Positions 3,748-58,500 of a stretch of DNA of 64,000 bases are shown piece by piece; positions within the stretch are counted from its first letter, which is position 1, and every line of letters starts with the position of its first letter. Origin of the DNA: Eledone cirrhosa (Eukaryota). The position numbers and the translations under genes are program-made. The notes beneath the pieces are model-generated. The model was given only the letters and a program-made list of their open reading frames with translations. It had not been told where the DNA came from and ran no database searches. The DNA is taken from assembly GCA_964016885.1 (NCBI GenBank), contig OZ024741.1, positions 295,430,001-295,494,000 of the forward strand. The letters run 5' to 3'.

Positions 3748-3786
3748 ATATACATATATATATATATATGCATGTATCATGATAAT

Positions 3787-12428: not shown

Positions 12429-12697
12429 ATATCCAGTGCTTTTATCGAGAATGACACAGCTAGAGACTTATAGAATACTTAGCTGTGTACAGGAACTGGT
12501 TTGAAAGAGCGGTTGCCGGTCCGGCAGAAATTAGAATTTGGATATAATGCTCTGAAATAGCGATATATATGTGAAGGCAAACATAGAATATTCGAAAATA
12601 TTCTGTATGTTTATAATAAACATTTCGAAGACCCAATCGCTATAGAATAGAATACGTCACGTATTACAATTTGAGATTCTCGATAAAAGCAAGGGAA

Positions 12698-12740
12698 GTA
12701 ACCTACGCGTTTCATTCTTATTAGAAATCATCAGGATTAC
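12698..12740 (-). ncRNA. Type I hammerhead ribozyme motif, copy 3
   Basis: Identical core to copy 1. Confidence 0.8.
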
Positions 12741-12977
12741 ATATCCAGTGCTTTTATCGAGAATGACACAGCTAGAGACTTATAGAATACTTAGCTGTGT
12801 ACAGGAACTTGTTTGAAAGAGCGGTTGCCGGTCCGGCAGAAATTAGAATTTGGATATAATGCTCTGAAATTCTAATTTCTGCCGGACCGGCAACCGCTCT
12901 TTTAAACCAGTTCCTGTACACAGCTAAGTATTCTATAAGTCTCTAGCTGTGTCATTCTCGATAAAAGCACTGGATAT

Positions 12978-13020
12978 GTAATCCTGATGATTTCTAATAA
13001 GAATGAAACGCGTAGGTTAC
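12978..13020 (+). ncRNA. Type I hammerhead ribozyme motif, copy 4 (inverted unit)
   Basis: CTGATGA 12984-12990, GAAA 13005-13008, GUA triplet ending at 13014, stem I GTAATC/GGTTAC. Confidence 0.8.
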
Positions 13021-13182
13021 TTCCCTTGCTTTTATCGAGAATCTCAAATTGTAATACGTGACGTATTCTATTCTATAGCGATTGGGTCTTCGAAATGTTT
13101 ATTATAAACATACAGAATATTTTCGAATATTCTATGTTTGCCTTCACATATATATCGCTATTTCAGAGCATTATATCCAAAA

Positions 13183-22789: not shown

Positions 22790-23945
22790 GGTGGTCATGT
22801 AGGTGTCACAACGAAAAGCACCCAGCACACACTGTAAAGTGGTCATGTAGGTTTCAGGACAAAAAACACCCAGCGCACACTGTAAAGTGGTCATGTAGGT
22901 GTCACAACAAAAAGCACCCAGCACACACTGTAAAGTGGTCATGTAGGTGTCACAAAAAAGCACCCAGCACACACTGTAAAGTGGTCATGTAGGTGTCACA
23001 ACAAAAAGCACACAGCATACACTGTAAAGTGGTCATGTAGGTGTCACAACAAAAAGCACCCAGCACACACTGTAAAGTGGTCATGTAGGTGTCACAACAA
23101 AAAAGCACCCAGCTCACACTGTAAAGTGGTCATGTAGGTGTCACAAAAAAAGCACCCAGCACACACTGTAAAGTGGTCATGTAGGTGTCACAACAAAAAG
23201 CACACAGCATACACTGTAAAGTGGTCATGTAGGTGTCACAACAAAAAGCACACAGCATACACTGTAAAATGGTCGTGTAGGTGTCACAACAAAAAACACC
23301 CAGCACACACTGTAAAGTGGTCATGTAGGTGTCACAACGAAATGCACCCAGCACACACTGTAAAGTGGTCATGTAGGTGTCACAACGAAATGCACCCAGC
23401 ATACACTGTAAAGTGGTCATGTAGGTGTCACAACAAAAAGCACACAGCATACACTGTAAAGTGGTCATGTAGGTGTCACAACAAAAAACACCCAGCACAC
23501 ACTGTAAAGTGGTCATGAAGGTGTCACAACGAAATGCACCCAGCATACACTGTAAAGTGGTCATGTAGGTGTCACAACAAAAAGCACACAGCATACACTG
23601 TAAAGTGGTCAGGTAGGTGTCACAACAAAAAACACCCAGCACACACTTTAAAGTGGTCATGTAGGTGTCACAACAAAAAGCACACAGCATACACTGTAAA
23701 GTGGTCAGGTAGGTGTCACAACAAAAAACACCCAGCACACACTTTAAAGTGGTCATGTAGGTGTCACAACAAAAAGCACACAGCATACACTGTAAAGTGG
23801 TCAGGTAGGTGTCACAACAAAAAACACCCAGCACACACTTTAAAGTGGTCATGTAGGTGTCACAACGAAATGCACCCAGCACACACTGTAAATTGGTCAA
23901 GTAGGTGTCATGACAAAAAGTTCCCAGCACACACTGTAAAGTGGT
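22790..23945 (+). repeat. 48-bp tandem repeat (about 24 copies) derived from the RTE 3' UTR
   Basis: Unit AAGTGGTCATGTAGGTGTCACAACAAAAAGCACCCAGCACACACTGTA; runs directly into the RTE terminal sequence GGTTGGTGTTAGGAAGGGCATCCAGC. Confidence 0.93.
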
Positions 23946-24387
23946 TGGTGTTAGGAAGGGCATCCAGCTGTAGAAACCAAGCCAAAATCGGTTCTGTATG
24001 AGCAAGACATGGTCATCTAACCTCAACTTGCCTCAAATAGGACAACCCGTCTAACCATATATATATTACAATGGGACGTCTCGTCTAACCAATGCTAGTG
24101 TGGAATATGGATGTTAAACTGTGATAATGATTTATACATATATATATATATATATGTACATATAGATATACATATACATATATATATATATATATACGTA
24201 TATATACACACACATACAGATATATACATGCATATATATTCCCTCCCTCTCCATTCGCGCACACACATGTATATCATGACTCATACACTGTTCACTTTCC
24301 TGACATTTGTACATTATTCTACATAATATAAATGCACCTTTGATGAGTTGTAGTGCACCTGAACATTCTACACAATAATTTAATTAT

Positions 24388-26463: not shown

Positions 26464-28472
26464 CATCGTCATCATCACCGTTTTACGTCCATTCTTCCAC
26501 GCTAGCATAGGTTAAACTGGTTGTCCTGTTGTGGGCAGTAGCCGGTTGGCTGACCATGTCTTGCTCATACAGGAACTGATTCTGGCTTGATTTCTATAGC
26601 TGGATGCCCTTCCTAACATCAACCTCATTTACAGTGAGTGCTGGGTGCTTTTTTGCCATGGTGCCTACACGTCCACTTTACTGTGTGGGCTAGCTGCTTT
26701 TTTGCCGTGGCACCTCCATGACCCCTTTGCAGTAGGAGGGAGTGGGGGCATATTGTCTATATGCTTCAGCTTCGGCTTGTACCCATGGGGGGGTCGGGTC
26801 TTCTGTATTACTGCGTGATGCCAGAGGTCACGGTCATGTGTCATCGCCTTTGAGAGGTGTAATTGGGTATGGTCGGCTCTTATCACCTCATCCACGGCTT
26901 CCATCGACTTCTAGTGCTCTGCACTTTTTAATGCTGCTGTCATCTTTCATACGCATCACATGTCCCTACCAACACAACCGCCTTTCCTGCACACAGCATT
27001 TGATTCCTCTTATTCTCAGTCTTTCTCTTAATTTGTTTATGCTTGGCTGTTCACGTATATTACTATTACACATCCATCGGAGCATGCAGGCTTCATTTCT
27101 TTCTAATCTACGCAAGTCTTCTATAGACAGCGCCCAGGTCTCACTACCATGTAACATTGCTGTTCATATACTCGCATCATACAGTCTGCCTTTCATTTTG
27201 AGGGAAAAGCCTTTTGCAGCTAGCAGTGGCAGTAGCTCCCTGAACTTCTTCCCTCCCGTTTTTACCCTAGTTATTGTACTTTCTGAACACCCACCTCCGC
27301 TGCTAATTCGGTCACCTAGGTAGCAGAAGCTGTCTACTGTTTCTACAGAGCCCTCCCACAGTTTGGTGGTGCTTGTTTCCGGTGGCTGTTTGCTGCTTGC
27401 TGTCTCAGCGCAGCTGCTACATGTGAAGCCTACATTCTTAGTTAAGCTTCCTGAGATCCCACTATATCTCTTGTGTACCCATTGTTTACATTTGGGGCAG
27501 AGGATGGAGTTCCTACCTACACCTTTCCTACATACTGAGCAAGGCCATTTCCCTGGGGAGATCTGGATTCTGTTTTCTTGTCTACTTATGAGGACGTTAG
27601 TCTTTGTCAGGTTGACTTTGAGACCCTTTCTTTCTAGTCCCTGCTTCCATGTTTGGAATTTCTTCTCTAGTTCTACCATAGATTCAGCTATAAGTGCAAG
27701 GTTATCTGCATACAGGAGTTCCCATGGGCATCCTTTCTTACACTCTTCCATTATTGCCAGTAAAACTATGATGAACAGGTGAAGGCTAATAACAGAGCCC
27801 TGGTGGACACCGACCTGTATGCTAAATTCCTCGCTATACTCATTGCTAATCCTAACTTTGCTGACTACTCCCCTATACATGGCTTGGGCAGCTTTCACAA
27901 GCCATTCATCTACTCCTAGTTTTCTAAGAGCCCACCAGATTACAGCACGGGGAACTCTGTTAAAGGCTTTTTCCAGTTCGACGAATGCCAGGTAGAGCGG
28001 CTTACTTTTAGCTAGGTACTTTTCCTGTAACTGCCTCACAAGGAAGAGGGCATCAGTGGTGCCTTTTCTTGGTACAAACCCAAATTGCATCTCATCTAGT
28101 TTTACCCGGTCCCTAATCAGCTGTGCTATAACTCTTTCTGTTACTTTCATAACCTGGTCCATCAGCTTCATACCTCTATAGTTTCCTCTATCTAGTGCAT
28201 CATCTTGTAGCAGTTGACAATGATGCTGCTGCACGAATCCTTTGGTATGACACCTTCTCGTATTACCTGGTTAACAATACGTGTGGTTATAGTGTGACCT
28301 ACAGACCCAGATTCCTTCAGCATCTCGGCAGCTATGCTTGATGGACCAGTTGCCTTCCCTGTCTTCATATCTTTGATTGCCTTACTTACTACACTGCTGC
28401 TGACTTGTACTGCTGACCCCTCTATAGGGTCTACTTGGGGTAGGGTCTCTTCTTCCCATGCATTCTCCTCAT
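26464..28472 (-). mobile_element. 5'-truncated, decayed RTE LINE
   Basis: ORFs 28192-28476, 27164-28234 and 26966-27157 with RT motifs (YADN variant); same 3' UTR. Confidence 0.93.
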
Positions 28473-30225: not shown

Positions 30226-30472
30226 TAGGAAAAGAGTCAGAACCCCAACAGCTGAGATCCAGCCGTTTCAACAGCTAGATCCGGATCTATCTGTCGAAAC
30301 GGCCAGAGCTTAGCCGCCGGGGTGCTGACTCTTTTCCTATTATCCACTCTACTCCACTAAGTATTGAGTACTTTGGTGCATTATGGTCTACCTGGTATTT
30401 TACCACACCCTCTTTGTTTTATATGTATATATATATATATATATAAAACAAAGAGGTTGTGGTAAAATACCA
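30226..30472. repeat. Small TA-embedded fold-back element
   Basis: About 115-bp imperfect palindrome TAGGAAAAGAGTCAG...CTGACTCTTTTCCTA, plus a second inverted pair around a TA run. Relative at about 25160-25290. Confidence 0.7.
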
Positions 30473-30946: not shown

Positions 30947-33094
30947 GTTCTTTGAGTCTCAGTCATTGATGTTATTTAACTGGAAAGTTTGTTGGAATGA
31001 ATATCAAGCCGCTACCTGCAGCCTCAGATATTCAGGACGTATCGGAGGGTTCTTGCTGTTCCCAGCAAGCATGCCTTTTGAAATGTTCCAAAACGCTGGG
31101 CTGGACTAATCTTCTTTAACCATCCTTGGAAACTCTATGACAATCGGGACGACCTTGATTTCATGGCAGTCCCAAATCCTTTTTAACTCCCACTTTAAGT
31201 CCCTGTATCGGTTAATTTTCTCCCTCTCCTTTTCTTGCACTCTCGTGTCAAATGGGCAGGCTACATCTACAAGCAGGCACGATCTTTTTTCCTTTTCCAA
31301 AACCACCAGGTCAGGCCTATTGTGTTCTAATTTCTTGTCCGTCTGTATCCTAAAATCCCATAGCACCTTCACCTGATCGTTTTGTATCACCGACTCTGGC
31401 TTATGCTCATATCACTTCTCAGAATGTGGTAAATTGTTTACTTCGCATAGGTGCCAGTGGATCACCCCGCCTATCACATCATGTCTCCAGCCTTTATAGT
31501 GAGTCTGGGCTAGGCGTTTACACTCGGATACAATGTGAGCCACAGTCTCCTCTCTCTCTCCACAGATGCTACACAGTGAGCTAGCCTCCTCCTTGTCAAT
31601 ATCGTTCTGAGGGCTTGCTCTTGCACAGCCATTAGCATTCCTTCTGTAGCTTTGTTAAGGTCCCCTCTTTTTAACCAGTTCCATGTCTGTGGATCTCTAA
31701 ATTCAGTTTTCTTAAAGAAGGTACTCTGACGGGATTTTTCATGAAGGTTGCTCTTCCTCCTGGTTGTTATTTCCTCCTTGGACATCCCCTGGTCTATTGT
31801 CTTCTCCTTCAGTACAATTTTGAGCATTGCCTCCCTACTGTCAGTCACATATTTGTGTAGGTTGTTTTTCTCCATCTGAACACAGTCCTCTATGCTGATA
31901 AGACCTCTTCCACCTTCAGATCTCTTTAAGTAGAGTCTATCGACATCACTCCTCTTGTGGAACATGTTGTAGATAGTCAATAGCTTCCTAGTCTTCATAT
32001 CCATTTCTTTTTGTTCAGCAACATTTCATTTCAGAATTCCCGCACTGTACCTAATAATAGACACAGCTCGGGAATTCACTGCACTTATGACATTCCTACT
32101 ATTTAGATGTGATTTTAATATGCCTGTTACTCTCCTTATGTACTCAGATCTTATCAATTCCTTCATTTTTTTGTTCTTGATGTCATCTGTCTCCAGAACA
32201 CCTAAATATTTGTATCCCTCTTCAGTGTCAATTTCCTTTATCATCTCACCTGTTGGTACCTGGACTCCGTTGCTTCTGCTCAATTTACCCCTCTTCATCA
32301 CTTGGACTCCACACTTATTTATACCAAATTCCATGCATATATCATTGCTGAAAATACAGACAGTGTCAACAAGTACATCCAACTCCTTATCACTCTTCTC
32401 AAAGAGTTTAAGATCATCCATGAAGAAGAAGTGGTTGATGGTAAGCTCCCCTTTTCCCAACTTGTATCTTGCTCTCACTTTTCGCAATATAACAGTCAGG
32501 GGTATCAGGGCAAGGACAAACAGCAGAGGGGACAAACTATCTCCCTGGAAGATATCTCTCTTGATCTTCACGCCTCCCAAGGATTCTCCACCCAGTGTTA
32601 ACTCTGTTTCCCAGGACTTCATACTTTTGCTCAACAACTGTCTGATGTTATCTGCCACCTTGAAGATCTCTAGGCTTTTGGTTATCCAAGAATGAGGTAC
32701 CATGTCGAATGCCTTTTTGTAATCTATCCATCCCAAGGCAAGACCAGTGTGCTTCCTCTTGCAATTCCTCATTACCATCTTATCAAAACTGGTCTTTTGT
32801 ACCACGGGACTTCTTTCGGCATCCTTTCTGTTCGTCCGGTAACAAGTTGTTTATGTGGAGGTGATGGTAGATTTCCTCAGACACAATGCTTGTTAACAGT
32901 TTCCACATTACGGACAGACATGTGATAGGCCTATAGTTGGTAACATCATTACCCTTGATTCGGTCTTTCATTACCAGAACTGTGGTACCTTTTGTCAACC
33001 ACTCTAGTACTTCACCCGACATCAAGCAGTCATTGAACATGGTTGTCAGTTTCGAGTAGAGGGATGTTATATTTTTAATCCAATACCCTTGCAC
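30947..33094 (-). mobile_element. 5'-truncated, decayed R4/Dong non-LTR element
   Basis: ORF fragments homologous to 51705-55097 (FQGDSLSPLLF, FMDD, PDLVV, DVACP); 3' end joins (TAA)n. Confidence 0.92.
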
Positions 33095-33696
33095 ATATTA
33101 TTTTGCCTTTCATCCTTACGGGGTCGATAAAATAAAGTACCAGTCATACACTGGGATAATTGCTGGTCTTGTGCCAAATGTAGAAACAATTATTATTATT
33201 ATTATTATTATTATTTTATTATTGTTGTTGTTGTTGTTGATGTTGTTGCTAGGGTGGCAGATTGGCAATTTCAGTAGAGGGTCAGGCCCTATACTTTGCA
33301 ACATAGAGTTATGGCCCTTTACACTCTGAGTTCAAATCTCGCCGAGGTTAGCTTTGTCTTTCATCCTTATGGGGTCAATAAAATAAAGCACCAATAATGC
33401 TCTGGGGTCAATTTAATCGACTTTTCCCCTCCCCCCAAATTGCTGGCCTTGTACCTTACGGGGTCGATAAAATAAAGTACCAGTAATACACTGGGATAAT
33501 TGCTGGCCTTGTGCCAAAAGTAGAAACAATTATTATTATTATTGTTGTTGTTGTTGTTGTTGATGATCATTCACAGAGTAATTTAGTTAACTGAAAGTAT
33601 CATTTCAGTCATCCATTCAGGTGTTTTATTTAAAGAGTTTACAGGTTTATCATCCCTGCTTCATTTATTACTTAAAAAGGAAATATACATACACCA

Positions 33697-35060: not shown

Positions 35061-36559
35061 ATATTATTGAAGCTTTTAGTAATATTTTTTCTGTACTTTT
35101 TATTTTATCTTTATTATAATTAAACTTTAATTCATATTTTTTACTCATATGATTGCATTCATGTATTGAATCAATAAAGGAGGTTAACGCGGGTTTTAGT
35201 AATATTTGTTTCCTTTTTCGTATAGTTACTGTATATTTACTTGTTTATATTTCAAATACTGTATTGGTTTTATGTTTTGCCCTAGGCCCAAAGCCCTCCC
35301 CTTTCACCCGTCCCCTCTCTTCTGTGACACCAGAACTCTTGTCATCTCCTCCCCTTCTTGTTCTTTTTCTTCTTTCTTTCTCTCTTTATTCTTTATATTT
35401 CCCTATTCTTTCTTTCCTTTTGTTTCCCTTTTTTTTATTATTGCCATCATTATAGCTGTCATTATTATTATTTTTACTATAAATAATATCATGTTTATAC
35501 ATTTTTTATCATAAATATTGCATTTGATTTTTTTTTTAAAGTTTTATAATAAATTCGTGATAAAAGTTTTATAATAAATTCATCCTAGCTCAAAGCAATA
35601 TAAAAAAATAATAATAATAATGATAATAAAAATGAATTTCAATGTTTTATTTTTTCTAATATCTGGAATGAAATTACCAGGGGTGAAATTGACTGGCAAT
35701 CAAATAACTGAGGGTTCAAATTACCAGAGTCAAAATAGCAGGAGTGAAATTACTGGCTACCCTCACAGGGTAACATGGACTCTGTAAGCCGTAGTGAAGG
35801 CAACACAGCTAGGAGAGTAGTCAGTCACACTGAATAAAATCTAATACAAGGTAAAGATGATTCTTATGTCTAGTCACAAACTCCCTAGTGCAGGTGGCAC
35901 AAATAACGCACCCAGTCCACATAAAGTGGTTGGTGATAGAAAGAACATCCAGCCAGGAAACACTGCCAAAAACCATGACCAGTATAACATATAATATTTG
36001 AATGGAAACAAATAGATTTATGCTGTATCCAAAACAGTGATTGATAGCTTTTGTTACCTAGGTGATCTAATTAGCAGTGGAGGACATTGCTCTAAGATCA
36101 TGATAGCTCTAAGGGTAGGATGGAAAACGTTTAGGGAGCTATTACTTCTATCGATAACTAAATGAAAGGTCAGCTATATGATATGCAAGATGCAATGTTG
36201 CATGGTGGTGAGGCATGGGCAGTGAATGCAGAAGATTAGTGAAGGCTGGAGAGAAATGAAGTAGCAGGATTCAATGGCTGTGCAATATTAATATGCATAA
36301 ATGACAAAGTATGAATGAGCCAAGAGAAAAACTGGGTATAAGAGGAATCAGAGAAACATAGAGAGAGAGAGAAAGGATGTGAAATAGAGATATAGACTGG
36401 TACTTTTTTATCAACCTTAAATAGATGAAAGTTAAAGTTGATCTCAGGGAGATTTGAACACAGAGAGCAAAGAGTCAGAACAAATACTGCAAAGCATTCT
36501 ATCCAACATTTTAATAACACTGCCAATTTGCCACCTATTCATTATATTATTGATATTAT

Positions 36560-38339
36560 TACAAGTGTAATGGTGATGCACTAGATAGAGGAAGCTATAG
36601 ATGTATAAAGCTGATGGACCAGGTCATGAAAGTAACGGAAAGAATTATAGCACAGCTGATTGGGGACCGGGTAAAACTAGATGAGATGCAATTTGGGTTT
36701 GTGCCAGGAAAAGGCACCACTGATGCCCTCTTCCTTGTGTGGCAGTTACAGGAAAAGTACCTAGTGAAAAGTAAGCCGCTCTACCTGGCATTCATCGATC
36801 TGGAAAAAGACTTCGACAGAGTTCCCCGTGCTATAATCTGGTGGGCTCTTAGAAAACTAGGAGTAGATGAATGGCTTGTGAAAGCTGTACAAGCCATGTA
36901 TAGGGGAGCAGTCAGCAAAGTTAGGATTAGCAATGACTATAGTGAGGAATTTAGCATACAGGTCGGTGTCCACCAGGGCTCTGTTATTAGCCCTATTCTG
37001 TTCCTCATAGTTGTGCAGGCAATAACGGAAGAGTTTAAGACCGGATGTCCATGGGAACTCCTGTATGCAGATGACCTTGCACTTATAGCTGAATCTGGTA
37101 GAACTAGAGAAGAAATTCCCAACATGGAAGCAGGGACTAGAAAGAAAGGGTCTCAAAGTCAACCTGACAAAGACTAACGTCCTCATAAGTAGACAAGAAA
37201 ACAGAATCCAGATCTCCCCAGGGAAATAGCCTTGCTCAGTATGTAAGAAAGGTGTAGGTAGGAACTCCATGCTCTGCCTCAAATGCAAACAATGGGTACA
37301 CAAGAGATGTAGTGGGATCTCAGGAAGCTTAACTAAGAATGTAGGCTTCACATGTAGCAGCTGCGCTGGGACAGCAAGCAGCAAACGGGCCACAGGAAAC
37401 AAGCACCACCAAACTGTAGAAGAGCTCTGTAGAAACAGTAGATAGCTTCTGCTACCTAGGTGACCGAATTAGCAGCGGAGGTGGGTGTTCGGAAAGTACA
37501 ATAACTAGGGTAAGAACAGGATGGAAGAAGTTCAACAAGCTACTGCCACTGCTAGCTGCAAAAGCCTTTTCCCTCAAAATGAAAGGCAGACTGCATGATC
37601 CAAGTATATGAACAGCAATGTTACATGGTAGTGAGACCTGGGCGCTGTCTATAGAAGACTTGCGTAGATTAGAAAGAAACGAAGCCTGCATGCTCCGATG
37701 GATATGTAATAGTAATATACGCGAACAGCAAAGCATAAACAAATTAAAAGAAAGACTGAGCATAAGAGGAATCAAATGATGTGTGCAGGAGAGGCGGTTG
37801 CGTTGGTATGGACATGTGATGCATATGAAGGATAACAGCTGCATAAAAAGGTGCAGAGTACTAAAAATCGATGGAAGCCATAGAGTGGGGAGACCCAAGA
37901 AGACCTGGGATGAGGTGATAAGAGCCGACCTTACCCAATAGCACCTCTCAAAGGCGATGACGCACGACTGTGACTTCTGGCATCACACAGTAATACAGAA
38001 GACCCAACTTCTCATGGGTACAAGCCGAAGCTGAAGCATATAGACAATATGCCCCCACTCACTCCCACTGCAAAGTAGTCGTGGAGGTGCCACGGCAAAA
38101 AAGCACCCAGCCCACACTGTAAAGTGGACGTGTAGGCGCCACAAAAAAGCACCCAGCACTCACTGTAAATGAGGTTGGTGTTAGGAAGGGCATCCAGCTG
38201 TAGAAATCAAGCCAGAATCAGTTCCCGTATGAGCAAGACAAGGTCAACCGACCGGATACTGCCCACAACAGGACAACCAGTCTAACCCATGCTAGCATGG
38301 AAGAACGGACGTAAAACGGTGATGATGATGATGATGATG
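36560..38339 (+). mobile_element. 5'-truncated, decayed RTE LINE
   Basis: ORF 36614-37177 RT motifs, then frameshift; full 3' UTR and (GAT)n. Confidence 0.93.
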
Positions 38340-39225: not shown

Positions 39226-39228
<3 letters not shown>

Positions 39229-39690
39229 GAATGAAAAATAACAGGTTCTCTCCTACTTCTCCAACCCCTGCATATCTTTCCTTCTCTCTCCATCTTCCCT
39301 ACTTTTCTCTCTTCCTGTTCCACTCTATCTTCCCCAACAACCCCACTTAAGGGTTTTTACATTGTATATTTACCATTCTGCTCTGAGGAAACAGTGGTCA
39401 CAGCATTGGATATTCGAGTTCTGCAAATACTTGTGAATTTGCACGTAGCGGAACTAGGCTGCAGTACCACCGTGGAAACACTTGTAAGCACACGGAATAA
39501 ACTACCTTTTTATGATATCTACCTGTTATTATTCATTCTTTATATACACTCCGGAATACTGAAGGATCAGGAACTAAGTTTCTTGAACAATTCTTCCATA
39601 ACTCGTAGAGTAACCTCTTACCGTACGTCAACCATATCCAGTGTAGTAATTAACCATCACTGCATCTTGGATAATCCTATACCTAATATA
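39226..39690 (+). mobile_element. TA-embedded Penelope pLTR-like element
   Basis: Hammerhead motif followed by AATAAA; 39226-39246 is an inverted copy of 39521-39541; (TA)n flanks. Confidence 0.6.
39379..39490 (+). ncRNA. Type I hammerhead motif with long branched stem II
   Basis: TGCT-CTGAGGA-aACAGTGGT...ACCACCGTg-GAAA-CacttG-TA-AGCA. Confidence 0.6.
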
Positions 39691-39719
39691 TATATATATG
39701 TGTATATATAAATATAAAA

Positions 39720-42373
39720 ATATGGAAGCTAAAGGACCCCACAGCCAGGAATAAATTTCAAAGCATATTACTTGATGCTTTCGACAGTAAGGAAGAACAT
39801 TTAGAGTCGGACAATATAGAGGGAGAATGGGAATTTCTGAAAGCAAACCTGCTGTTGGCGACAGACGAAGTCTGTGGCTGGAGCAGGCCTGTAGGCAGGA
39901 GGAGAGTAACATGGTGGTGGAACAGTAAGGTGGAGGGGTCAATTAAGGCCAAAAAGCAGGCTTGGAAAGTATGGCGGGATGGGGGAAGTAGAGAAGACTA
40001 TCAAGTGGCCAGGAGGGAAGCTAGGAGACAAGTGTACTTAGCAAGAAGGGAAGCTGAGGAAAGAAAGTTCAAGGATGTTCTACAACGCGATGACCAAAAA
40101 CGTGAGGTGTTCAGGATTGCTAGGCAATGCGTCAAGGAAAACCGTGATATTGTCAGGGAGAAGTGTGTACTAAACGACGATGGCACACTTGCCATCACCG
40201 ACGCTGATAAGAAGGTAGCTTGGAAGTGTCACTATGAAAGGCTACTAAATGAGGAGAATAAATGGGAGAAAGACAGTCTCCCCCATATCGACCCAATAGA
40301 GGGACCAGCAGTGTTAGTCGAGGGGAGTATAATAAGTAAGGCAATCAAGGATATGAAGACGGGTAAGGCGGCTGGGCCTTCGGAAATAGTTGCTGAGATG
40401 CTGAAGGCATCTGGCACGGTGGGACACACCATGGTCACCCGCATAGTTAACCAAGTCGTACAGAATGGGGTTGTTCCGAAGGACTGGCATAGCAGCATCA
40501 TCGTTAACTGTTATAAGGGTAAAGGAGACGCCCTAGATAGGAGTAACTATAGAGGCATTAAATTAATCGACCAGGTCATGAAGGTCACGGAAAAAGTAAT
40601 AGCGCAACTAATCAGAGAGAGAATTGACCTAGATGAAATGCAGTTCGGGTTTGTGTCAGGCAAAAGTACCACAGACGCTCTTTTCATAGTACGACAACTA
40701 CAGGAGAAGTACCTAGCTAAAGGTAAACCCCTCTACTTAGCTTTTGTCGACTTGGAGAAAGCCTTCGACAGAGTCCCCCGCTCCATTATCTGGTGGGCTC
40801 TTAGAAAACTAGGCGTTGACGAATGGCTTGTGAGGGCTATACAAGCCATGTATAAAGAAACAGTCAGCAAGGTTAGAATTAACAACGAATATAGTGAAGA
40901 GTTTAGCGTAAAAGTTGGCGTCCATCAGGGCTCTGTTCTCAGCCCCCTACTATTTATTATTTCCCTTCAGGCTATAACAGAGGAGTTCAAGACAGGCTGC
41001 CCATGGGAACTCCTATACGCAGACGACCTGACACTCATAGCGGAATCAATGGCCGAGCTAGAGAAGAAATTCCAAACATGGAAGCACGGCCTAGAGTCAA
41101 AAGGACTTAAAATTAACCTGGCTAAGACCAAAGTACTAGTTTGTAGGAAAGAAAACAAGGCGGCGGTCCCTTCTGGGAAATGGTCGTGCTCGGTGTGTAG
41201 GAAAGGCGTAGGTAGAAACTCCATTTTATGTCCTAAATGCAAAGTATGGGTGCATAAAAGATGTAGTGGGATCACAGGTAAGCTAACTAAGAACATAGAT
41301 TTTACATGTGGCCGGTGTTCTGGTGCAATAAGTAGCAGCAAGTGCCCACAAAATACTAGCTCTTTCAATTGCGCAGAGGGTTCTATAGAAATAGTGGACA
41401 GCTTCCGTTACCTGGGCGATAAAATCAGCAGTGGGGGAGGGTGCTCCGAAAGTACTGTAGCTAGAGTCAGAACTGGTTGGAAAAAGTTCAGAGAGCTTAT
41501 ACCACTATTAGCTGCTAAAGGGTTCTCCCTAAAAATGAAAGGCAGGTTGTACGATGCCTGCATACGAACAGCAATGCTGCATGGCAGTGAGACCTGGGCA
41601 TTGTGTGCAGAGGATATACGCAGACTAGAGAGGAACGAAGCTTGCATGCTCCGCTGGATGTGTAACAGTAATATACGTGAACGGCAAAGCATAAACGAAC
41701 TAAGGAAAAAATTAGAGATAAGAGGGATCAGATGTTGTTTACTCGAGAGAAGGCTACGTTGGTATGGACACGTGATGCGCATGAAAGTCGATAGCTGTAT
41801 AACAAAGTGCAGGGCAATAAAGATAGACGGTAGTCACGGAATAGGCAGACCTAGAAAAACCTGGGACGAGCTGATAAACTCCGACATCACACACTTACAC
41901 CTCTCCAAGACAATGTCACTGGACCGAGACCTTTGGCGGTACTCAGTAACAGAGAAGACCCGCCTTACCTAAATATATAGTAAAACCTACTCCAGCCAGT
42001 AGGCATCTCTAACAAAATACACCCCGTCCCACCACCACCACCCCCACCCCATCCACACCACCCCGTTCTATGTAAAGTTATGTTGGTGCCGCGCCATCGA
42101 GGCCGAAACAAATGAGATCGTGTAGGTGTCACGACAAAAAAACACACAGTCCACGCTGTAATGTGGCCGTGTAGGCAACACGGTAAAAACCTCCCAGACC
42201 CACACTGTAAATGTGGTTGGTGTTAGGAAGGGCATCCAACTGTAGAAAACCTGCCAGACAGTCCTATGCGAGCAAGACAATCACTCTTGCCTCAAGTGGG
42301 ACTACCCCCGTCCAAACCCATGCAAGCGTGGAACACGGACGTTAAACGTTGATGATGATGATGATGATGATGA
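39720..42373 (+). mobile_element. 5'-truncated RTE LINE (second subfamily) with uninterrupted RT frame
   Basis: ORF 39855-41972 (705 aa; the frame is open from about 39720) with RT and PHD-like finger; no APE; (GAT)n tail. Confidence 0.95.
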
Positions 42374-49729: not shown

Positions 49730-50762
49730 ATTGTAGAATTCCTACTAAAAAAGAGGAAGGCATCAAAATATATAAATAGACTCAAAAGAAAAAACAAAAA
49801 ATCAAAATCAAAGCAGCACAGCAACAACAACAACAACAACAACAAAAAAAAAAGTAAAGAAAATAAGAATGAAGAGAGAAACAAACGGACGGACAGAGAA
49901 AGGAAGGGAAAAACTAAGTCAGACATTCGAACACTACATTACAATGAAACTTATGCTTATTCATTTTTGGAGTTTTTTCTGCCTGTTTGTTTGTTTGTTT
50001 ATTTGTGTTCGTCTACAACGTGATAATGCCACACAAGAGCCACGTGGAGTGACGCAACCACCGGAGGCGGTGAATCCACCGGTGGTTATGTAACCATACA
50101 TTCACCAATCCTCGATAAGAGTGTTTAAATGTCGAACCTAAACAGTTCGAATAACGGTGAAATGGAGACTAGAACGTCATGTGACAGACTCTCACCCAAC
50201 AGGTGCTCCCTGGCTCCTATGCAAAGTAAACAATTTACCACATTCTGAGAAGTGGTATGAGCATAAGCCAGAGTCGGTGATAGAGTCGGTGATAGAAAAC
50301 GATCAGGTGAAGGTGCTGTGGGATTTTAGGATACAGACGGACAAGAAACTGGAACACAATAGACCTGACCTGGTGGTTGTGGACAAAGAAAAGAGATCGT
50401 GCCTGATTGTGGATGTGGCCTGCCCATTCGACACGAGAGTGCAAGAGAAGGAGAGGGAGAAAATTAGCCGATACCAGGGCTTAAAGTGGGAGGTAAAAAG
50501 GATTTGGAACTGCCATGAAGTCAAAGTGATCCCGATTGTCATAGGCGCACTGGGGACTATCTCCAAAAGTTTCCAGGGATGGTTAAAGAAAATCGGCCCC
50601 TTCACGCTTTTTGGAACGCTTCAAAAGGCATGCTTGCTGGGAACAGCAAGAACCCTCCGATACGTCCTGAATATCTGAGGCTGCAGGTAGTGGCTTGATA
50701 TTCATTCCAACAAGCTTTCCAGTTAACTAACATCAATGACTGAGACTCAAGGAGTAATAACA

Positions 50763-50815
<53 letters not shown>
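49730..50815 (+). mobile_element. Internally deleted R4/Dong copy (5' UTR joined to endonuclease)
   Basis: 5' UTR and ORF start are fused at about 50212 to the RLE region; ORF 50157-50678; (TAA)n tail. Confidence 0.88.
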
Positions 50816-50816
<1 letters not shown>

Positions 50817-51704
50817 TATTCAAATATTCAACTTTGTATTGTACACTGTATATCCAAAAAAAATAAAATGGCTATAAATGGAAGAAGAAGAACCCCCCCC
50901 CTCCTCTCCTCTGGCTACACTATATAGGACAGCGAAACTCAGCAACACCAGAAACTAGATACACCACCCACCCCATCATCTGTGTACACTAAACACAACA
51001 GCATTTTCACCTTCACCGCCACCGCTCACTACGGCCATCATTACCACCACTATCCCATCACCGCCGCCACCACCCCTTGACTCCTTCACTGCTGCTGCCA
51101 CCGCTACAGCACCATCACTACAGTAATACGGTCGCATCACCGCCACCACTGCCTCGGTATCGACATAACCACCACCACTGTCTCAGTATCGCCAACGCCG
51201 CCAGTCTCTGCTGGCTGCCACTTCCACATTATAGAATTCCTACTACTAACAAAGAGGAAGGCATCAAAATATATAGATAGACTCAAAAGAAAAAAGAAAA
51301 AACAAACAACAAAAGCAGCACAGCAACAACAGCAAAAAACAAGAAAAACAAACAGAGAAAAACAATAACAAAAAAAGACACCCCAAAAACGTAAAGAAAA
51401 TAAGAATGAAGAGAGAAGCAGGCGGACGGACAGAGAAGAGGGGGGAAAAACTAAAACTTAAAAAACAAAAACTAAGTCAGACATTCGAATACTACATTAC
51501 AATGAAACTTATGCTTATTCATTTTTGGGGCCCTTTCTGCCCGTGTGTTTGTTTGTTTATGTGTGTCCGTATACAGCGTGGTGATAATGCCACACAAGGG
51601 CCAAGTGGGATGGCGGATCCACAGATGGCTATGTAAACATACATTCGCCAATCCTCGATAAGAGTGTTTAAATATCGAACATAAACAGTTCGAATAACGG
51701 TGAA

Positions 51705-54700
51705 ATGGAGACTAGAACGTCATGTGACAGACTCTCACCCAACAGGTGCCCCCTGGCTCAGCAGCAGGAACCTGACTGTCAACCAAATACTGCTGATGTT
51801 GGAGGAAGAAGAAGAAGGAAAGGGGCCAGAACCAACTGGACGAAAGAATTGAATAGAACTGTTATGCAATGCTACCTGAAAAGTAACCCCAAGGAGAGGG
51901 GCTACAGGAGACGGATGCATAACATCTGGAACGAGATTGGTTTATTTAAATTAGATGAACAAAAATTGGCCGGGCAGGCTCGGGTAATAAGAACTAATGG
52001 GTGGATAAGCGAGCTGGAACTGGAGGAACTGAGCAGAGAGAATGGCTTGGAGATGGCGGGTGTAGTATGCCAGACAAGCGAGCCGGCGGGAAATGAAGGT
52101 GAGGAGGTCCTGAGAACGGAGGAACCACCCGAAGCGGACAATGATCTGAATACTGAGATAAATAATACCTGGAACAGAGATACGGCCACTGAGGAGATGA
52201 ATGCTGACGGGCTAGGACAAGATTCGGTTGACATCCTAAATTTAGTGGTAGATGAGTTGAACAATGATAGTGGGAGACCTATGAACCTAAGATTTGTAGA
52301 CAGGAAAAAGTTAAAAGAAACAACAGCTAAGGTAAACAAAGTCATCCCATACCTTGAGGCGAGGAGTCTTCACCAGTGCAACAATATCCTCAAAGCAACA
52401 GCAAATACGGTGAGGAAACTACTTGGTATAAAAGCGAGAGGAAACAACAGACAAGAAAGAGCAGAGCCGTGGTGGAAGAAGCGACTGAGTGGGCAAATCG
52501 AGGAAATGAGAAATGACATAGGAAAGCTTGAGTCACTACTGAATGGGACACTAAAAAACATAGGCACTAAAAATAGACTGGAAATAAAATACAAAACTAG
52601 GAGTAAAAAGCTAAATATTATCATAGAGGAATTGAAGCAACGCATTGTAGCAAAGAGTGCCAAAATCAGGCGATACGAGAACAGAGTCAGTCAGTATAAA
52701 CAGAACCGCATGTTCGACAACAACCAGAAGATGCTGTTTGGACAGCTTGAGGGGAAAGAAAGAGGCAACGACTTGATCCCTGGGGCGGAACAAGCTAAAA
52801 CATTCTGGAGAGGAATATGGGAGCAGGATGTTAGACACAATGCCCAGGCAGGGTGGATTGAGACAGTACAGAGGGAGATCGGTGAGCAGGCACAGCAACA
52901 GACTGATTTGAGTATCACAGTTGAAACTCTTAAGGGGCAAGCCAAAAAACTAACCAACTGGAAATCACCAGGCCCAGATGGTGTGCAGGGGTATTGGATT
53001 AAACATTTAACATCCCTCCACCCGAAGCTGACGGCCATGTTCAATGACTGCTTGGTGTCGGGTGAGGTGCCAGAGTGGTTGACAAAAGGTACCACAGTTC
53101 TGATAATGAAAGACCGAATCAAGGGTAATGATGTTACCAACTATAGACCTATCACATGTCTGCCCGTAATGTGGAAACTGTTGACGAGCATTGTGTCTGA
53201 GGAAATCTACCATCACCTCCACACAAACAACTTGTTGCCGGACGAACAGAAAGGATGCCGAAAGAAGTCACGTGATACAAAGGACCAGTTGCTTATTGAT
53301 AAGATGGTAATGGGGAATTGCAGGAGGAGACACACTGATCTTGCCATGGGATGGATAGACTACAGAAAGGCATTTGACATGGTGCCTCATTCCTGGATCA
53401 CCAAAAGCCTGGAGATCTTCAGGGTGGCAGATAACATCAGACAGTTGCTGGGCAGGAGTATGGGGTCCTGGGAGACAGAGTTGACATCAACTGGAGTATC
53501 CTTGGGAAGCGTGAAGATCAAGAGAGGTATCTTCCAGGGAGATAGCCTGTCCCCTCTGTTGTTTGTCCTTGCCCTGATGCCCTTGACCATTATGCTGCGA
53601 AAAGTGAGAGCAGGATACAAGTTGGGAAGGGGAGAGCTTACCATCAATCACCTCCTCTTCATGGACGATCTTAAGCTCTTCGGGAAAAGTGAGAAGGAGT
53701 TGGATGTGCTTGTTGACACTGTCCGTATTTTCAGCAGTGATATATGTATGCAGTTTGGTATTGGTAAATGTGGAGTCATTGTGATGAGGAGGGGTAGGTT
53801 GAGCAGAAGTAACGGGATCCAGATACCAACAGGTGAGATGATAAAGGAAATTGACTCTGAGGAAGGATACAAGTATTTGGGCGTTCTGGAGGCTGATGGC
53901 ATAAAGAACAAAAAAATGAAGGAATTGTTAAGAACTGAATACATTCGGAGAGTAAGGAGCGTATTGAAGTCACATCTGAACAGCAGAAATGCCATAAGCG
54001 CAGTAAATTCCCGAGCTGTGTCTATTATTAGGTACAGTGCGGGAATTCTGAGATGGAATGTTGCTGAACAAAAAGAAATGGATAGGAAGACTAGGAAGCT
54101 ATTGACTATCTACAACATGTTCCACAAGAGGAGTGATGTCGATAGACTCTACCTAAGGAGATCTGAGGGTGGAAGAGGTCTTATCAGCATAGAGGACTGT
54201 GTTCAGATGGAGAAAAACAACCTATACAAATACGTGACCTATAGTAAGGAGCCAATGCTCAGAGCTGTACTGAAGGAGGGGACAGTAGGCCAGGGGATAT
54301 CCAAGGAGGAAATAACATCAAGGAGGAAGAGCAGCCTTAAGGGAAAATCCCTTCATAGTACCTTCTTTGAGAAAACTGAATTTAGAGATCCACAGACATG
54401 GAACTGGTTGAGAAGAGGAGACCTCAAAAAGGCTACAGAAGGAATGCTAATGGCTGCGCAGGAGCAGGCCCTCAAAACGAAGTGGTTGAAGCACCATATC
54501 TACAAGGAGGAGGCTAGCCCACTGTGCAGGATCTGTGGAGAGAGAGAGGAGACTGTGGCTCACATTGTGTCCGAGTGTAAACACCTAGCCCAGACCCACT
54601 ATAAGGGCTGGAGACACGATGTGATGGGCAGGGTGATCCACTGGCACCTGTGCAAAGTAAACAATCTACCACATTCTGAGAAATGGTATGAGCATAGGCC

Positions 54701-55097
54701 AGAGGCGGTGATGGAGAACAGTCAGGTGAAGGTGCTGTGGGATTTTAGGATACAGACGGACAAAAAACTGGAACACAATAGACCTGACCTGGTGGTTGTG
54801 GACAAAGAAAAAAGATCGTGCCTGATTGTGGATGTGGCCTGCCCGTTCGACACGAGAGTGCAAGAGAAGGAGAGGGAGAAAATTAACCGATACCAGGACC
54901 TAAAGTGGGAGGTGAAAAGGATTTGGAACTGCCATGAAGTCAAAGTGATCCCGATTGTCATAGGCGCACTGGGGACTATCTCCAAAGGTTTCCAGGGATG
55001 GTTAAAGAAAATCGGCCCCTTCACGCTTTTTGGAACGCTTCAAAAGGCATGCTTGCTTGGAACGGCAAGAACCCTCCGATACGTCCTGAATATCTGA
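51705..55097 (+). CDS. Intact R4/Dong polyprotein (RT, CCHC finger, restriction-like endonuclease), 1130 aa
   Basis: SPGPDG, NYRPI, FQGDSLSPLLF, FMDD, CRIC..ETVAHIVSEC, RHD, PDLVV..DVACP..EK..RY; followed by short 3' UTR and (TAA)n. Confidence 0.95.
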   Translation: METRTSCDRLSPNRCPLAQQQEPDCQPNTADVGGRRRRKGARTNWTKELNRTVMQCYLKSNPKERGYRRRMHNIWNEIGLFKLDEQKLAGQARVIRTNGWISELELEELSRENGLEMAGVVCQTSEPAGNEGEEVLRTEEPPEADNDLNTEINNTWNRDTATEEMNADGLGQDSVDILNLVVDELNNDSGRPMNLRFVDRKKLKETTAKVNKVIPYLEARSLHQCNNILKATANTVRKLLGIKARGNNRQERAEPWWKKRLSGQIEEMRNDIGKLESLLNGTLKNIGTKNRLEIKYKTRSKKLNIIIEELKQRIVAKSAKIRRYENRVSQYKQNRMFDNNQKMLFGQLEGKERGNDLIPGAEQAKTFWRGIWEQDVRHNAQAGWIETVQREIGEQAQQQTDLSITVETLKGQAKKLTNWKSPGPDGVQGYWIKHLTSLHPKLTAMFNDCLVSGEVPEWLTKGTTVLIMKDRIKGNDVTNYRPITCLPVMWKLLTSIVSEEIYHHLHTNNLLPDEQKGCRKKSRDTKDQLLIDKMVMGNCRRRHTDLAMGWIDYRKAFDMVPHSWITKSLEIFRVADNIRQLLGRSMGSWETELTSTGVSLGSVKIKRGIFQGDSLSPLLFVLALMPLTIMLRKVRAGYKLGRGELTINHLLFMDDLKLFGKSEKELDVLVDTVRIFSSDICMQFGIGKCGVIVMRRGRLSRSNGIQIPTGEMIKEIDSEEGYKYLGVLEADGIKNKKMKELLRTEYIRRVRSVLKSHLNSRNAISAVNSRAVSIIRYSAGILRWNVAEQKEMDRKTRKLLTIYNMFHKRSDVDRLYLRRSEGGRGLISIEDCVQMEKNNLYKYVTYSKEPMLRAVLKEGTVGQGISKEEITSRRKSSLKGKSLHSTFFEKTEFRDPQTWNWLRRGDLKKATEGMLMAAQEQALKTKWLKHHIYKEEASPLCRICGEREETVAHIVSECKHLAQTHYKGWRHDVMGRVIHWHLCKVNNLPHSEKWYEHRPEAVMENSQVKVLWDFRIQTDKKLEHNRPDLVVVDKEKRSCLIVDVACPFDTRVQEKEREKINRYQDLKWEVKRIWNCHEVKVIPIVIGALGTISKGFQGWLKKIGPFTLFGTLQKACLLGTARTLRYVLNI

Positions 55098-55203
55098 GGC
55101 TGCAGGTAGTGGCTTGATATTCAATCCAACGGACTTTCCAGTTAACCAACATCAATGACTGAGATTCAAGGAATAACAATAACAATAATAATAATAATAA
55201 TAA

Positions 55204-55535
55204 CTGCCCGTTCGACACGAAAGTGCAAGAGAAGGAGAGGGAGAAAATTAACCGATACCAGGACTTAAAGTGGGAGGTAAAAAGGATTTGGAACTGCTAT
55301 GAAGTCAAAGTGGTCCCGATTGTCATAGCCGCACTAGGTACTATCTCAAAATGTTTCCAGGGATGGTTAAAGAAATTTGGCCCCTTCACGCTTTTTGGAA
55401 CGCTTCAAAAGGCATGCTTGCTGGGAACAGCAAGAACCCTCCAATACGTCCTGAATATCTGAGGCTGCAGGTAGTGGCTTGATATTCATTTCAACAAACT
55501 TTCCAGTTAACTAACATCAATGACTGAGACTCAAA

Positions 55536-55581
<46 letters not shown>
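55204..55581 (+). mobile_element. R4/Dong short 3' fragment
   Basis: ORF 55223-55462 repeats the C-terminal 79 aa; (TAA)n on both sides. Confidence 0.9.
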
Positions 55582-55585
<4 letters not shown>

Positions 55586-58500
55586 GAAAAAAGAAAAAAA
55601 CAAACAAAACCAAAGCAGCACAGCAACAACAGCAAAAAACGAGAAAAACAAACAGAGAAAAAAAAAAACAAAAAAAAACAAAAAAAAAAAAAACAAAACA
55701 AAAAACCCAGAAAACGTAAAGAAAATAAGAATGAAGAGAGAAGCAGGCGGACGGACAGAGAAGAGGGGGGAAAAACTAAAACTTAAAAAACAAAAACTAA
55801 GTCAGACATTCGAACACTACATTACAATGAAACTTATGCTTATTCATTTTTGGGGCCCTTTCTGCCTGTGTGTTTGTTTGTTTATGTGTGTTCGTATACA
55901 GCGTGGTGATAATGCCACACAAGGGCCAAGTGGAATGGCGGATCCACAGATGGATATGTAACCATACATTCGCCAATCCTCGATAAGAGTGTTTAAATAT
56001 CGAACATAAACAGTTCGAATAACGGTGAAATGGAGACTAGAACGTCATGTGACAGACTCTCACCCAACAGGTGCCCCCTGGCTCAGCAGCAGGAACCTGA
56101 CTGTCAACCAAATACTGCTGATGTTGGAGGAAGGAGAAGAAGGAAAGGGGCCAGAACCAACTGGACGAAAGAATTGAATAGAACTGTTATGCAATGTTAC
56201 CTGAAAAGTAACCCCAAGGAGAGGGGCTACAGGAGACGGATGCATAACATCTGGAACGAGATTGGTTTATTTAAATTAGATGAACAAAAATTGGCCGGGC
56301 AGGCTCGGGTAATAAGAACTAATGGATGGATAAGCGAGCTGGAACTGGAGGAACTGAGCAGAGAGAATGGCTTGGAGATGGCGGGTGTAGTATGCCAGAC
56401 AAGCGAGCCAGTGGGAAATGAAGGTGAAGAGGTCCTGAGAACGGAGGAACCACCCGAAGCAGACAATGATCTGAATACTGAGATAAATAATACCTGGAAC
56501 AGAGATACGGCCACTGAGGAGATGAATGCTGACGGGCTAGGACAAGATTCGGTTGACATCCTAAATTTAGTGGTAGATGAATTGAACAATGATAGTGGGA
56601 GACCTATGAACCTAAGATTTGTAGACAGGAAAAAGTTAAAAGAAACAACAGCTAAGGTAAACAAAGTCATCCCATACCTTGAGGCGAGGAGCCTTCACCA
56701 GTGCAACAATATCCTCAAAGCAACAGCAAATACGGTGAGGAAACTACTTGGTATAAAAGCGAGAGGAAACAACAGACAAGAAAGAGCAGAGCCGTGGTGG
56801 AAGAAGCGACTGAGTGGGCAAATCGGGGAAATGAGAAATGACATAGGAAAGCTTGAGTCACTACTGAATGGGACACTAAAAAACATAGGCACTAAAAATA
56901 GACTGGAAATAAAATACAAAACTAGGAGGAAAAAGCTAAATATTATCATAGAGGAACTGAAGCAACGCATTGTAGCAAAGAGTGCAAAAATCAGGCGATA
57001 CGAGAACAGAGTCAGTCAGTATAAACAGAACCGCATGTTCGACAACAACCAGAAGATGCTGTTTGGACAGCTTGAGGGGAAAGAAAGAGGCAACGACTTG
57101 ATCCCTGGGGCGGAGCAAACTAAAACATTCTGGAGAGGAATATGGGAGCAGGATGTTAGACACAATGCCCAGGCAGGGTGGATTGAGACAGTACAGAGGG
57201 AGATCGGTGAGCAGGCACAACAACAAACTGATTTGAGTATCACAGTTGAAACTCTTAAGGGGCAGGCCAAAAAACTAACCAACTGGAAATCACCAGGCCC
57301 AGATGGTGTGCAGGGGTATTGGATTAAACATTTAACATCCCTCCACCCGAAGCTGACGGCCATGTTTAATGACTGCTTGGTGTCGGGTGAGGTGCCAGAG
57401 TGGTTGACAAAAGGTACCACAGTTCTGATAATGAAAGACCGAATCAAGGGTAATGATGTTACCAACTATAGACCTATCACATGTCTGTCCGTAATGTGGA
57501 AACTGTTGACGAGCATTGTGTCTGAGGAAATCTACCATCACCTCCACACAAACAACTTGTTACCGGACGAACAGAAAGGATGCCGAAAGAAGTCACGTGG
57601 TACAAAGGACCAGTTGCTTATTGATAAGATGGTAATGGGGAATTGCAGGAGGAGACACACTGATCTTGCCATGGGATGGATAGACTACAGAAAGGCATTT
57701 GACATGGTGCCTCATTCCTGGATCACCAAAAGCCTGGAGATCTTCAGGGTGGCAGATAACATCAGACAGTTGCTGGGCAGGAGTATGGGGTCCTGGGAGA
57801 CTGAGTTGACATCAACTGGAGTATCCTTGGGAAGCGTGAAGATCAAGAGAGGTATCTTCCAGGGAGATAGCCTGTCCCCTCTGTTGTTTGTCCTTGCCCT
57901 GATGCCCTTGACCATTATGCTGCGAAAAGTGAGAGCAGGATACAAGTTGGGAAGGGGAGAGCTTACCATCAATCACCTCCTCTTCATGGACGATCTTAAG
58001 CTCTTCGGGAAAAGTGAGAAGGAGTTGGATGTGCTTGTTGACACTGTCCGTATTTTCAGCAGTGATATATGTATGCAGTTTGGTATTGGTAAATGTGGAG
58101 TCATTGTGATGAAGAGGGGTAGGTTGAGCAGAAGTAACGGGATCCAGATACCAACAGGTGAGATGATAAAGGAAATTGACTCTGAGGAAGGATACAAGTA
58201 TTTGGGCGTTCTGGAGGCTGATGGCATAAAGAACAAAAAAATGAAGGAATTGTTAAGAACTGAATACATTCGGAGAGTAAGGAGCGTATTGAAGTCACAT
58301 CTGAACAGCAGAAATGCCATAAGCGCAGTAAATTCCCGAGCTGTGTCTATTATTAGGTACAGTGCGGGAATTCTGAGATGGAATGTTGCTGAACAAAAAG
58401 AAATGGATAGGAAGACTAGGAAGCTATTGACTATCTACAACATGTTCCACAAGAGGAGTGATGTCGATAGACTCTACTTAAGGAGATCTGAAGGTGGAAG

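Follow-up and report, generated by a model that had tools for sequence, protein, structure and literature searches.

An extended stem II arm with two internal loops in the type I hammerhead of a Hydra-clade Penelope-like element of Eledone cirrhosa

The closest described relatives of the element considered here are the Hydra-clade Penelope-like elements (PLEs) with a C-terminal endonuclease (EN+), which include Hydra-1_Obim (Craig et al. 2021, PMC8557442). In the portions of that study available to us, these elements combine RWK and DKT motifs, the CxCX5C, CxxC and CxH motifs, a C-terminal GIY-YIG domain and a (TA)n target with a pLTR made up of an inverted 5' arm and a tail, and with a type I hammerhead after the ORF whose stems I and III are short and whose first stem II pair is often mismatched. 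All of these features are shared by an element in the window, by which we mean the whole 64,000-nucleotide stretch of Eledone cirrhosa DNA that was analysed. In contrast to the published Hydra elements, most of which are shorter than 3 kb, the unit of the window element measures 3.18 kb; its tail is 142 nt, where 30-40 bp is given for PLEs, and its stem II domain is 85 nt with two conserved internal loops, whereas the published stem II domains have 3-7 bp and loops of 3-10 nt. The minimal PLE hammerheads, as far as the accessible text describes them (Cervera and de la Pena 2014, PMC4209133), likewise lie in pLTRs and share a 4-5 bp helix I, a 7-8 bp helix II base and a weak palindromic helix III, which implies dimers and an expected low activity (a prediction in the case of the window copy); hammerheads with such a stem III act as dimers and cut poorly. 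That text describes no long arm, and the G10.1-C11.1 pair conserved there is absent from the window copy.

In a different clade, the Poseidon element PAc from Anolis (Frangieh et al. 2024, PMC11167929, available to us in part) has a hammerhead that depends on the element's protein, is not required for insertion in vitro and is followed by a tail that marks two internal starts of reverse transcription. As in PAc, two copy ends of the window element bound a tail downstream of the hammerhead, and copying would proceed from uncut RNA. However, the PAc hammerhead overlaps the start codon, whereas the predicted cut in the window element lies 249 nt upstream of the ATG, and protein-assisted cleavage, demonstrated for PAc, is a proposal only for the window element. 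Lengthened hammerheads are known in other clades or topologies: those of Selaginella PLE-X1 (Craig 2021 File S2, PMC8557442) have a stem II of ~50 nt, shorter than the window arm, and the extended type III hammerheads of HDV-like RNAs (PMC7936874) have a lengthened helix I with a conserved internal loop, which, according to the accessible text, forms a pseudoknot with loop 2, whereas inspection by eye found no conserved Watson-Crick partner for the loops of the window arm. A U.U first stem II pair permits cleavage (Perreault 2011, PMC3088659), and the accessible literature on hammerhead first-pair mismatches yielded no cleavage test of an A.G pair; a protein ligase closes cut retrozyme RNAs into circles (PMC7229834; both papers available in part). 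Within the openly accessible literature (10.64898/2026.07.22.740005 and PMC7936874 included; subscription papers, Repbase notes and bioRxiv supplements lay outside it) we found no published description of a long stem II in PLE hammerheads. PLE hammerheads are nearly universal and yet poor cutters, and one tested case needs the element's protein. As the clade of the window element and the type of its ribozyme are both known, what is new here is the pair of conserved internal loops around a covarying helix on stem II, and the gain lies in this internal motif and its test.

A young Hydra-clade element in the window

The window copy is the 3' end (pLTR part) of a Hydra-clade PLE inserted in (TA)n (Table 1). 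Homology extends further upstream in other copies, which end in (TA)n, and the window copy is therefore 5'-truncated. A search of the 3.0-Gb Eledone cirrhosa genome with the window copy gave 1968 first-look candidates, and the 40 that were scored are ~99.6% identical over 251 bp, some of them differing from the window copy by one base in 251. The element is young, abundant and of a known clade. Genomic copies have either of two ends, 39688 or 39546, the latter being that of many inverted arms, and the hairpin in the tail between these two ends has a fold z of -3.21. Both ends fall on short TA runs, with a CTCC...TTGA-type sequence a few bases later (by eye; window, L049:6030-6060 and L083:4455-4600).

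Table 1. Features of the window copy of the element (positions are those of the window)
Feature	Position	Strand	Remarks
Short inverted arm	39227-39246	-	reverse copy of 39521-39540, 19/20 complementary; runs into upstream (TA)n at the element's 'short' end 39546
5'-truncated pLTR part of element	39247-39688	+	~99.6% identical copies, (TA)n flanks, ORF linkage
Stem I 5' strand, ATTC (Ib) + TGCT (Ia)	39375-39382	+	pair 2.2 C-G in 44/74, U-A in 24/74; ATTC/GAAT kept in 66/74
Catalytic core C3-U4-G5-A6-N7-G8-A9 (CTGAGGA)	39383-39389	+	G5 and A9 in 74/74, G8 in 73/74, C3 in 68/74 copies
85-nt stem II domain, unbranched rod	39390-39474	+	first position A.G, then nested helices
Basal helix of arm	39391-98/39466-73	+	within stem II domain
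CAGC/GCTG helix of arm	39401-04/39458-61	+	within stem II domain
Loop 1 of arm	ATT 39405-07 opposite TAG 39455-57	+	internal loop
Middle helix of arm	39408-16/39449-55	+	weak in the window's family
Loop 2 of arm	AGT 39417-19 opposite TAG 39446-48	+	internal loop
Terminal hairpin of arm	39422-28/39437-43	+	within stem II domain
Core GAAA, 2-bp stem III with ACTT loop (imperfect palindrome), GUA triplet	39475-39486	+	predicted cut after A39486, from hammerhead consensus
Stem I 3' strand (AGCA, 4-nt bulge, GAAT), overlaps AATAAA 39496-39501	39487-39501	+	AATAAA kept in 70/74 copies
'Tail' of 142 nt	39547-39688	+	between the two genomic copy ends, 39546 and 39688; holds hairpin ~39635-39673

Tandem copies of the element are spaced 3181 bp and flank an ORF of 784 aa; the predicted cut lies 202 nt upstream of the long copy end. 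The encoded protein (P0001) is a single ORF with an RT followed by a C-terminal GIY-YIG and with no N-terminal EN, the YRDD and WYYIG..W motifs being read from the translation. A direct Pfam scan of P0001 gave no hit; its full-length homologues carry PF26215, and one of them also PF01541. Altogether 846 full-length relatives were found, with 33-42% identity among the best 120 of these 846. P0001 contains both RWK (RRVRWKAF) and DKT in place of DKG (KADKTSN), by which the Hydra clade is defined, and it has the linker CNCHLPERC (CxCX5C) as well as CRLC (CxxC) and CNH (CxH) around the E and N of the EN; on inspection by eye CCHH is absent. Insertion in (TA)n, pLTRs, a tandem and inverted structure and a hammerhead within the pLTR, the remaining hallmarks of the clade, are all present. 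The original prediction, made from the DNA letters, had described a Penelope-type terminal repeat that is embedded in TA, has a short inverted 5' segment and lacks evident similarity to a 312-bp repeat family of the window. The linkage to the ORF, the Hydra motifs, the pLTR and the (TA)n flanks bear out the first of these statements, the 20-nt inverted arm in Table 1 agrees with the second, and the repeat is indeed unrelated in sequence to the 312-bp family.

Other identities and links were discarded. A non-LTR retrozyme, composed of short non-coding tandem units without an ORF, is ruled out by the 3181-bp unit with its intact ORF, and a Naiad PLE (N-terminal GIY-YIG, CxC linker, no canonical hammerhead) by the C-terminal EN and the canonical order of the hammerhead. 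A link to the RT-PHD LINE downstream (39687-41972) was rejected because other copies of the element end in (TA)n.

The hammerhead core and stems I and III

Judged by its sequence, the motif is a type I hammerhead, with the core CUGANGA...GAAA...UH in type I order. Every group of letters named in the original prediction is where it was said to be (TGCT 39379-82, CTGAGGA 39383-89, GAAA 39475-78, C-ACTT-G 39479-84, TA 39485-86, AGCA 39487-90), and the AATAAA expected about 5 nt after stem I indeed starts 5 nt past AGCA. Stem I can be extended beyond a 4-nt bulge through ATTC/GAAT, and this extension overlaps the AATAAA. Folding energies alone do not single out the region and Rfam is blind to it, and the case for the hammerhead therefore rests on comparison: an Rfam search of the window returned no hammerhead at E up to 1, none was returned at the gathering score in 8 of 8 loci tested, the whole 146-nt region is no more stable than its shuffles (z +0.17), and RNAalifold returned no consensus structure for 74 copies.

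These 74 distinct copies come from the Eledone cirrhosa genome and represent three to four subfamilies (alignment A1; 10 of 91 copies, of partial or outlier length, as well as identical rows and copy L120, were removed beforehand). Conservation of the core in other copies, on which the original prediction had staked its case, is what we find: the core is intact in 60 of the 74, with G5 and A9 kept in 74, G8 in 73 and C3 in 68. Invariant positions are G5, A9, A14, A15.1 and U16.1, and N7 (G in 39 copies, A in 33, T in 2) is the sole core position with alternative majority states. Compensatory change is seen at stem I pair 2.2 and at three basal pairs of stem II, with 99 cells changed on both sides versus 31 in shuffled and 5-32 in slid controls; this covariation amounts to about four events among the 74 copies, and the count of pairs with change is by itself not above shuffles (175 of 500). 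Between families, stem I takes different forms (TGCT/AGCA, TATT/AATA, AGGT/ACCT, GTCT/AGAC, CTTT/AAAG), stems I and III covary and the cleavage triplets are GUH. In 14 of the 16 clusters of arms introduced below, stem III can pair with itself at all 4 positions if G-U is allowed. In the dimer of the window's family it has two central mismatches (-3.1 vs about -8 kcal/mol), for which reason the window copy may be among the weaker cutters; stem Ia has a pair probability of ~0.1 in the predicted ensemble of the window copy.

The first position of stem II, 10.1-11.1, is unpaired in the window copy (A.G, versus the usual G-C) and in the 74 copies reads A-U (33), A.A (24), A.G (10), U.A (4), U-G (2) or C.A (1). 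A mismatch here is already known, being common in the Hydra and PLE hammerheads published in the sources available to us. It had been claimed for three hammerhead types of the window; U.U in the 312-bp family and A.G in the window copy were recovered, but three scans of the window found no type with 'A-A'.

The stem II arm and its two internal loops

The enlarged stem II had been described as branched. Its length of about 85 nt stands, but the helices named in that description are all nested, which makes the domain one rod with no junction, and all nine arms that we folded are single rods, the eight from other families having z values of -1.3 to -4.7. The helix given as its base, ACAGTGGT/ACCACCGT, is present, with an A.C mismatch at pair 3 that had been overlooked. 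The AGTTC/GAACT helix did not survive the comparison, since 34 and 66 of the 74 copies, respectively, cannot form its last two pairs, and the minimum-energy fold of the arm takes TTCG/CGGA. On its own the window arm is marginally stable (z -1.47), and the middle helix of the window's family is degenerate (3-5 pairs), although its minimum-energy fold nonetheless takes the register found across families. Among copies with exact flanks, 660 have the long arm and 1 has a short one, and the reversed pattern control gave 0.

A descriptor search allowing a long stem II, proposed together with the original prediction, was carried out on the Eledone cirrhosa genome with a generic pattern (core, 72-102 nt, GAAAC-N4-GTH, AATAAA) and returned 7247 matches versus 16 for the reversed control. 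For comparison of the arms, 50 loci were taken from the first 100 listed of these 7247 matches, and Hydra-type coding sequence lies near 14 of the 50. With three arms added from the window's family, this gave 53 distinct arms, which group at 70% identity into 16 clusters. In 43 of the 53 arms and 12 of the 16 clusters, a covarying helix of 7-8 bp is flanked by two internal loops in which A-D-U faces Y-A-G. The layout common to these 12 clusters consists of a basal helix, a short helix ending GT/AC, GC/GC, AC/GT or AT/AT, loop 1 (ATT opposite TAG in 9 of 11 scored clusters), the 7-8 bp middle helix, which ends CG/CG or TG/CA, loop 2 (A-D-T opposite Y-A-G in most clusters) and a variable hairpin. 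The descriptor of this motif, which was written after viewing the arms that it scores, matches 1.2% of shuffled arms, and with at least 7 pairs it matches 33 of the 53 arms versus 0.09% of shuffled ones. MAFFT, working from sequence alone and without the descriptor, aligns the motif as well, with 7 of 10 pairs covarying (score 0.48 versus 0.22 shuffled and at most 0.16 slid). In this alignment (A3) one row is cut 7 bases off and the window's family has its three rows out of register on the 3' side; these rows were kept and mostly count against pairing. Recurrence of both inner loops in about a dozen diverged relatives makes it likely that the arm performs a function of its own.

The original prediction also took the enlarged stem II for an independent expanded ribozyme domain. 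Enlarged it is, but not independent: the long arm is common to at least a dozen families, and nine long-arm rows form one clade with a support of 99, two poorly assigned long-arm rows falling outside, in a quick tree without outgroup whose rows are relatives rather than named Hydra reference proteins. On these sequence comparisons the long arm is inherited within one Hydra sub-lineage and did not grow independently. When a protein search was used as a held-out test, all that it recovered were known families or one family whose 31-nt arm lacks the motif, and it added no new motif positive; long arms are thus not universal among the Hydra elements of the Eledone cirrhosa genome. In 77 metagenome loci with Hydra-like proteins a hammerhead was found in 53, all with stem II domains of 10-25 nt, and a long rod arm in none.

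A sister family, family B, was found by protein alone (66% identity) and has the same core, a 90-nt arm and the AATAAA at the same place; other families found by protein alone also have the same core at the same place. Family B is young and active (948 first-look candidates, 40 identical copies; L083:4255-4450, L161-L180), and its stem I, at 1-2 bp, is too reduced to pass as a stem I. The strand after its cut (AATACCT) is complementary to AGGTATT inside the arm, which may reflect an alternative fold or a dead ribozyme.

Other hammerheads of the genome differ in their arms. Loci L377-L406 belong to a Hydra family (42% identity, open frames of ~740-780 aa) with a 31-nt stem II and an AT-only stem III, and arms of 93 and 100 nt without the twin-loop motif (L222:541-668, L227:2911-3039) represent other long-arm designs. 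A second large hammerhead class has a stem II of 41-71 nt (5576 matches versus 13 in the control), and many of its loci (L311-L340) share another internal motif, GAGTCAGG opposite CCTYGAGCT; since 1 of 30 loci has a weak Hydra protein match, this class is probably non-autonomous or from another PLE group.

Two further proposals for the arm were set aside. A pseudoknot between the arm and the 3' strand (TATTC/GAATA) is present in the window's subfamily and lost in older subfamilies, family B having its own option of 7-8 bp. SECIS or K-turn identity of the loops was rejected by eye, as the consensus of those motifs has GA where the 3' strand of the arm loops reads AG.

Predicted cleavage and the possible role of the arm

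Overall, we think it fairly probable that the type I hammerhead of this young Hydra-clade terminal repeat carries, as its 85-nt stem II, an inherited unbranched arm with two conserved internal loops, and that this arm likely offers a site for binding or docking through which a cut after 39486, predicted to be slow and aided by dimer formation or by protein, is controlled. Transcripts reading through tandem units would fold into the hammerhead motif. Having a 2-bp stem III, a 4-bp stem Ia and a mismatched first pair, it would be a weak ribozyme when alone, and for this reason two copies would pair through stem III and/or the element's protein would aid folding, by analogy with what has been described for other hammerheads of PLEs. 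Cutting of consecutive repeats would yield a 3181-nt unit RNA, with a 249-nt leader and the AAUAAA at its start, that could circularise. Cleavage would be slow and conditional. Reverse transcription of the read-through RNA would begin at 39546 or 39688, on a template that is mostly uncut or has been re-ligated into a circle; since these starts lie 60 or 202 nt downstream of the cut and synthesis passes back over it, most integrated copies would derive from RNA that was left uncut or was rejoined. In stem I there is a 4-nt bulge, and no partner for a loop 1-loop 2 contact was identified. Since the arm lacks a short loop 2 for this usual contact, the best candidates for a replacement, or for the site of the RT-EN protein, are the arm's A.G-containing internal loops, and in our model the twin loops would either replace the loop 2 contact or bind that protein. 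Tentatively, and with more doubt than confidence, we put forward a bolder version: a Hydra sub-lineage may have turned stem II into a dedicated domain of 75-100 nt, with two A.G internal loops one helical turn apart as the recognition site of the element's telomerase-related RT-endonuclease, which would select its own RNA and gate the ribozyme, making it a natural protein-switched hammerhead.

Of 30 copies that span the junction between the upstream repeat and the ORF, 21 continue past the predicted cut and none starts at it, so that no pile-up of 5' ends is seen there. The absence of such starts would also fit a fold that is kept without any cutting in vivo, with the hammerhead and arm acting as a structural handle for the element's RNP or hiding the poly(A) signal, and with cleavage dispensable. 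This would further agree with the amplification of family B in spite of a stem I of 1-2 bp, with the overlap between stem Ib and the AATAAA and, in the accessible text of Frangieh 2024 (PMC11167929), with hammerhead mutants that left insertion in vitro unaffected and RNA-seq reads none of which ended at the cut. We nevertheless judge a purely non-cutting role rather unlikely, because the retained catalytic positions with N7 left free, the GUH triplets and the stems I and III that covary across families form the pattern expected if the chemistry itself is selected. Among 25 locatable 5' ends of ORF-bearing copies (L341-L370), 17 fall in 39417-39576, around the ribozyme, which may be due to RT that stalls in the arm, to transcription starting there or to selection by the query.

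It is more doubtful still that the arm hides a short retained spliceosomal intron, the splicing of which (e.g. 39397-39457) would reduce it to a canonical stem II of 7 bp and an 8-nt loop, turning the ribozyme on. The spliced product would match the stem II of Hydra-1_oBim, 7 bp plus 8 nt (Craig 2021 File S2, PMC8557442), and the Drosophila Penelope hammerhead lies directly next to an intron (Cervera and de la Pena 2014, PMC4209133), according to the parts of both sources available to us. The 3' side of both loops is YAG and GT precedes loop 1 in 6 of the 12 motif-bearing clusters; however, GC, AC or AT stands there in the other 6, with a compensating partner in all but one (L137), and the dinucleotide therefore changes as paired bases do, unlike a donor. 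Such introns would moreover span no more than 47-61 nt. Neither the single short copy among 661 nor either of two short copies from another family represents a GT-AG deletion, but PLEs retain introns in DNA, which makes the lack of GT-AG-deleted DNA copies a weak point against an intron. Contigs from runs of unrecorded kind, covering two families, contain no arm-skipping joint and have no bearing on splicing either way. That the arm is a neutral insertion or an expanded hairpin which loop 2 tolerates is very improbable and, as far as the sequences tell, largely refuted by covariation across families: it would suit the marginal stability and degenerate middle helix of the window family's arm and the widely varying arm lengths among families of the genome (31, about 45-65 and 75-100 nt), but it leaves unexplained the unpaired loop letters, which, like the helix spacing, are kept across arms less than 70% identical with compensatory pairs, and it sits badly with the near-absence of short-arm copies in the window's family.

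The conserved, deletable and covarying stem II domain is a direct handle on what hammerheads do in PLEs. More than 7000 long-arm pattern matches in one genome, together with the failure of Rfam at all the loci tested, mean that published hammerhead counts are probably too low.

The window holds several other repeats. At 11973-13181 lies the 312-bp tandem family, retrozyme-like, with three minus-strand hammerheads and one plus-strand hammerhead that have a 14-nt stem II, a U.U first pair and a palindromic CGCG loop. Fragments of an RT plus PHD-finger LINE occur at 1861-3843, 17417-19012, 27164-28270, 36554-38031 and 39687-41972, with Pfam RVT_1 and PHD on four ORFs scanned. Tandem copies of an RT-encoding LINE (ORFs of 1141 aa and 972 aa) with shared ends and (TAA)n tails occupy 50282-59465, an inverted copy being found at 31135-33095. 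A 48-bp tandem array at 22670-24071 is related to dispersed short repeats at 29437, 38066 and 42105, and a near-perfect 80-bp inverted repeat around a TA run (30393-30472) is the source of spurious miRNA family matches.
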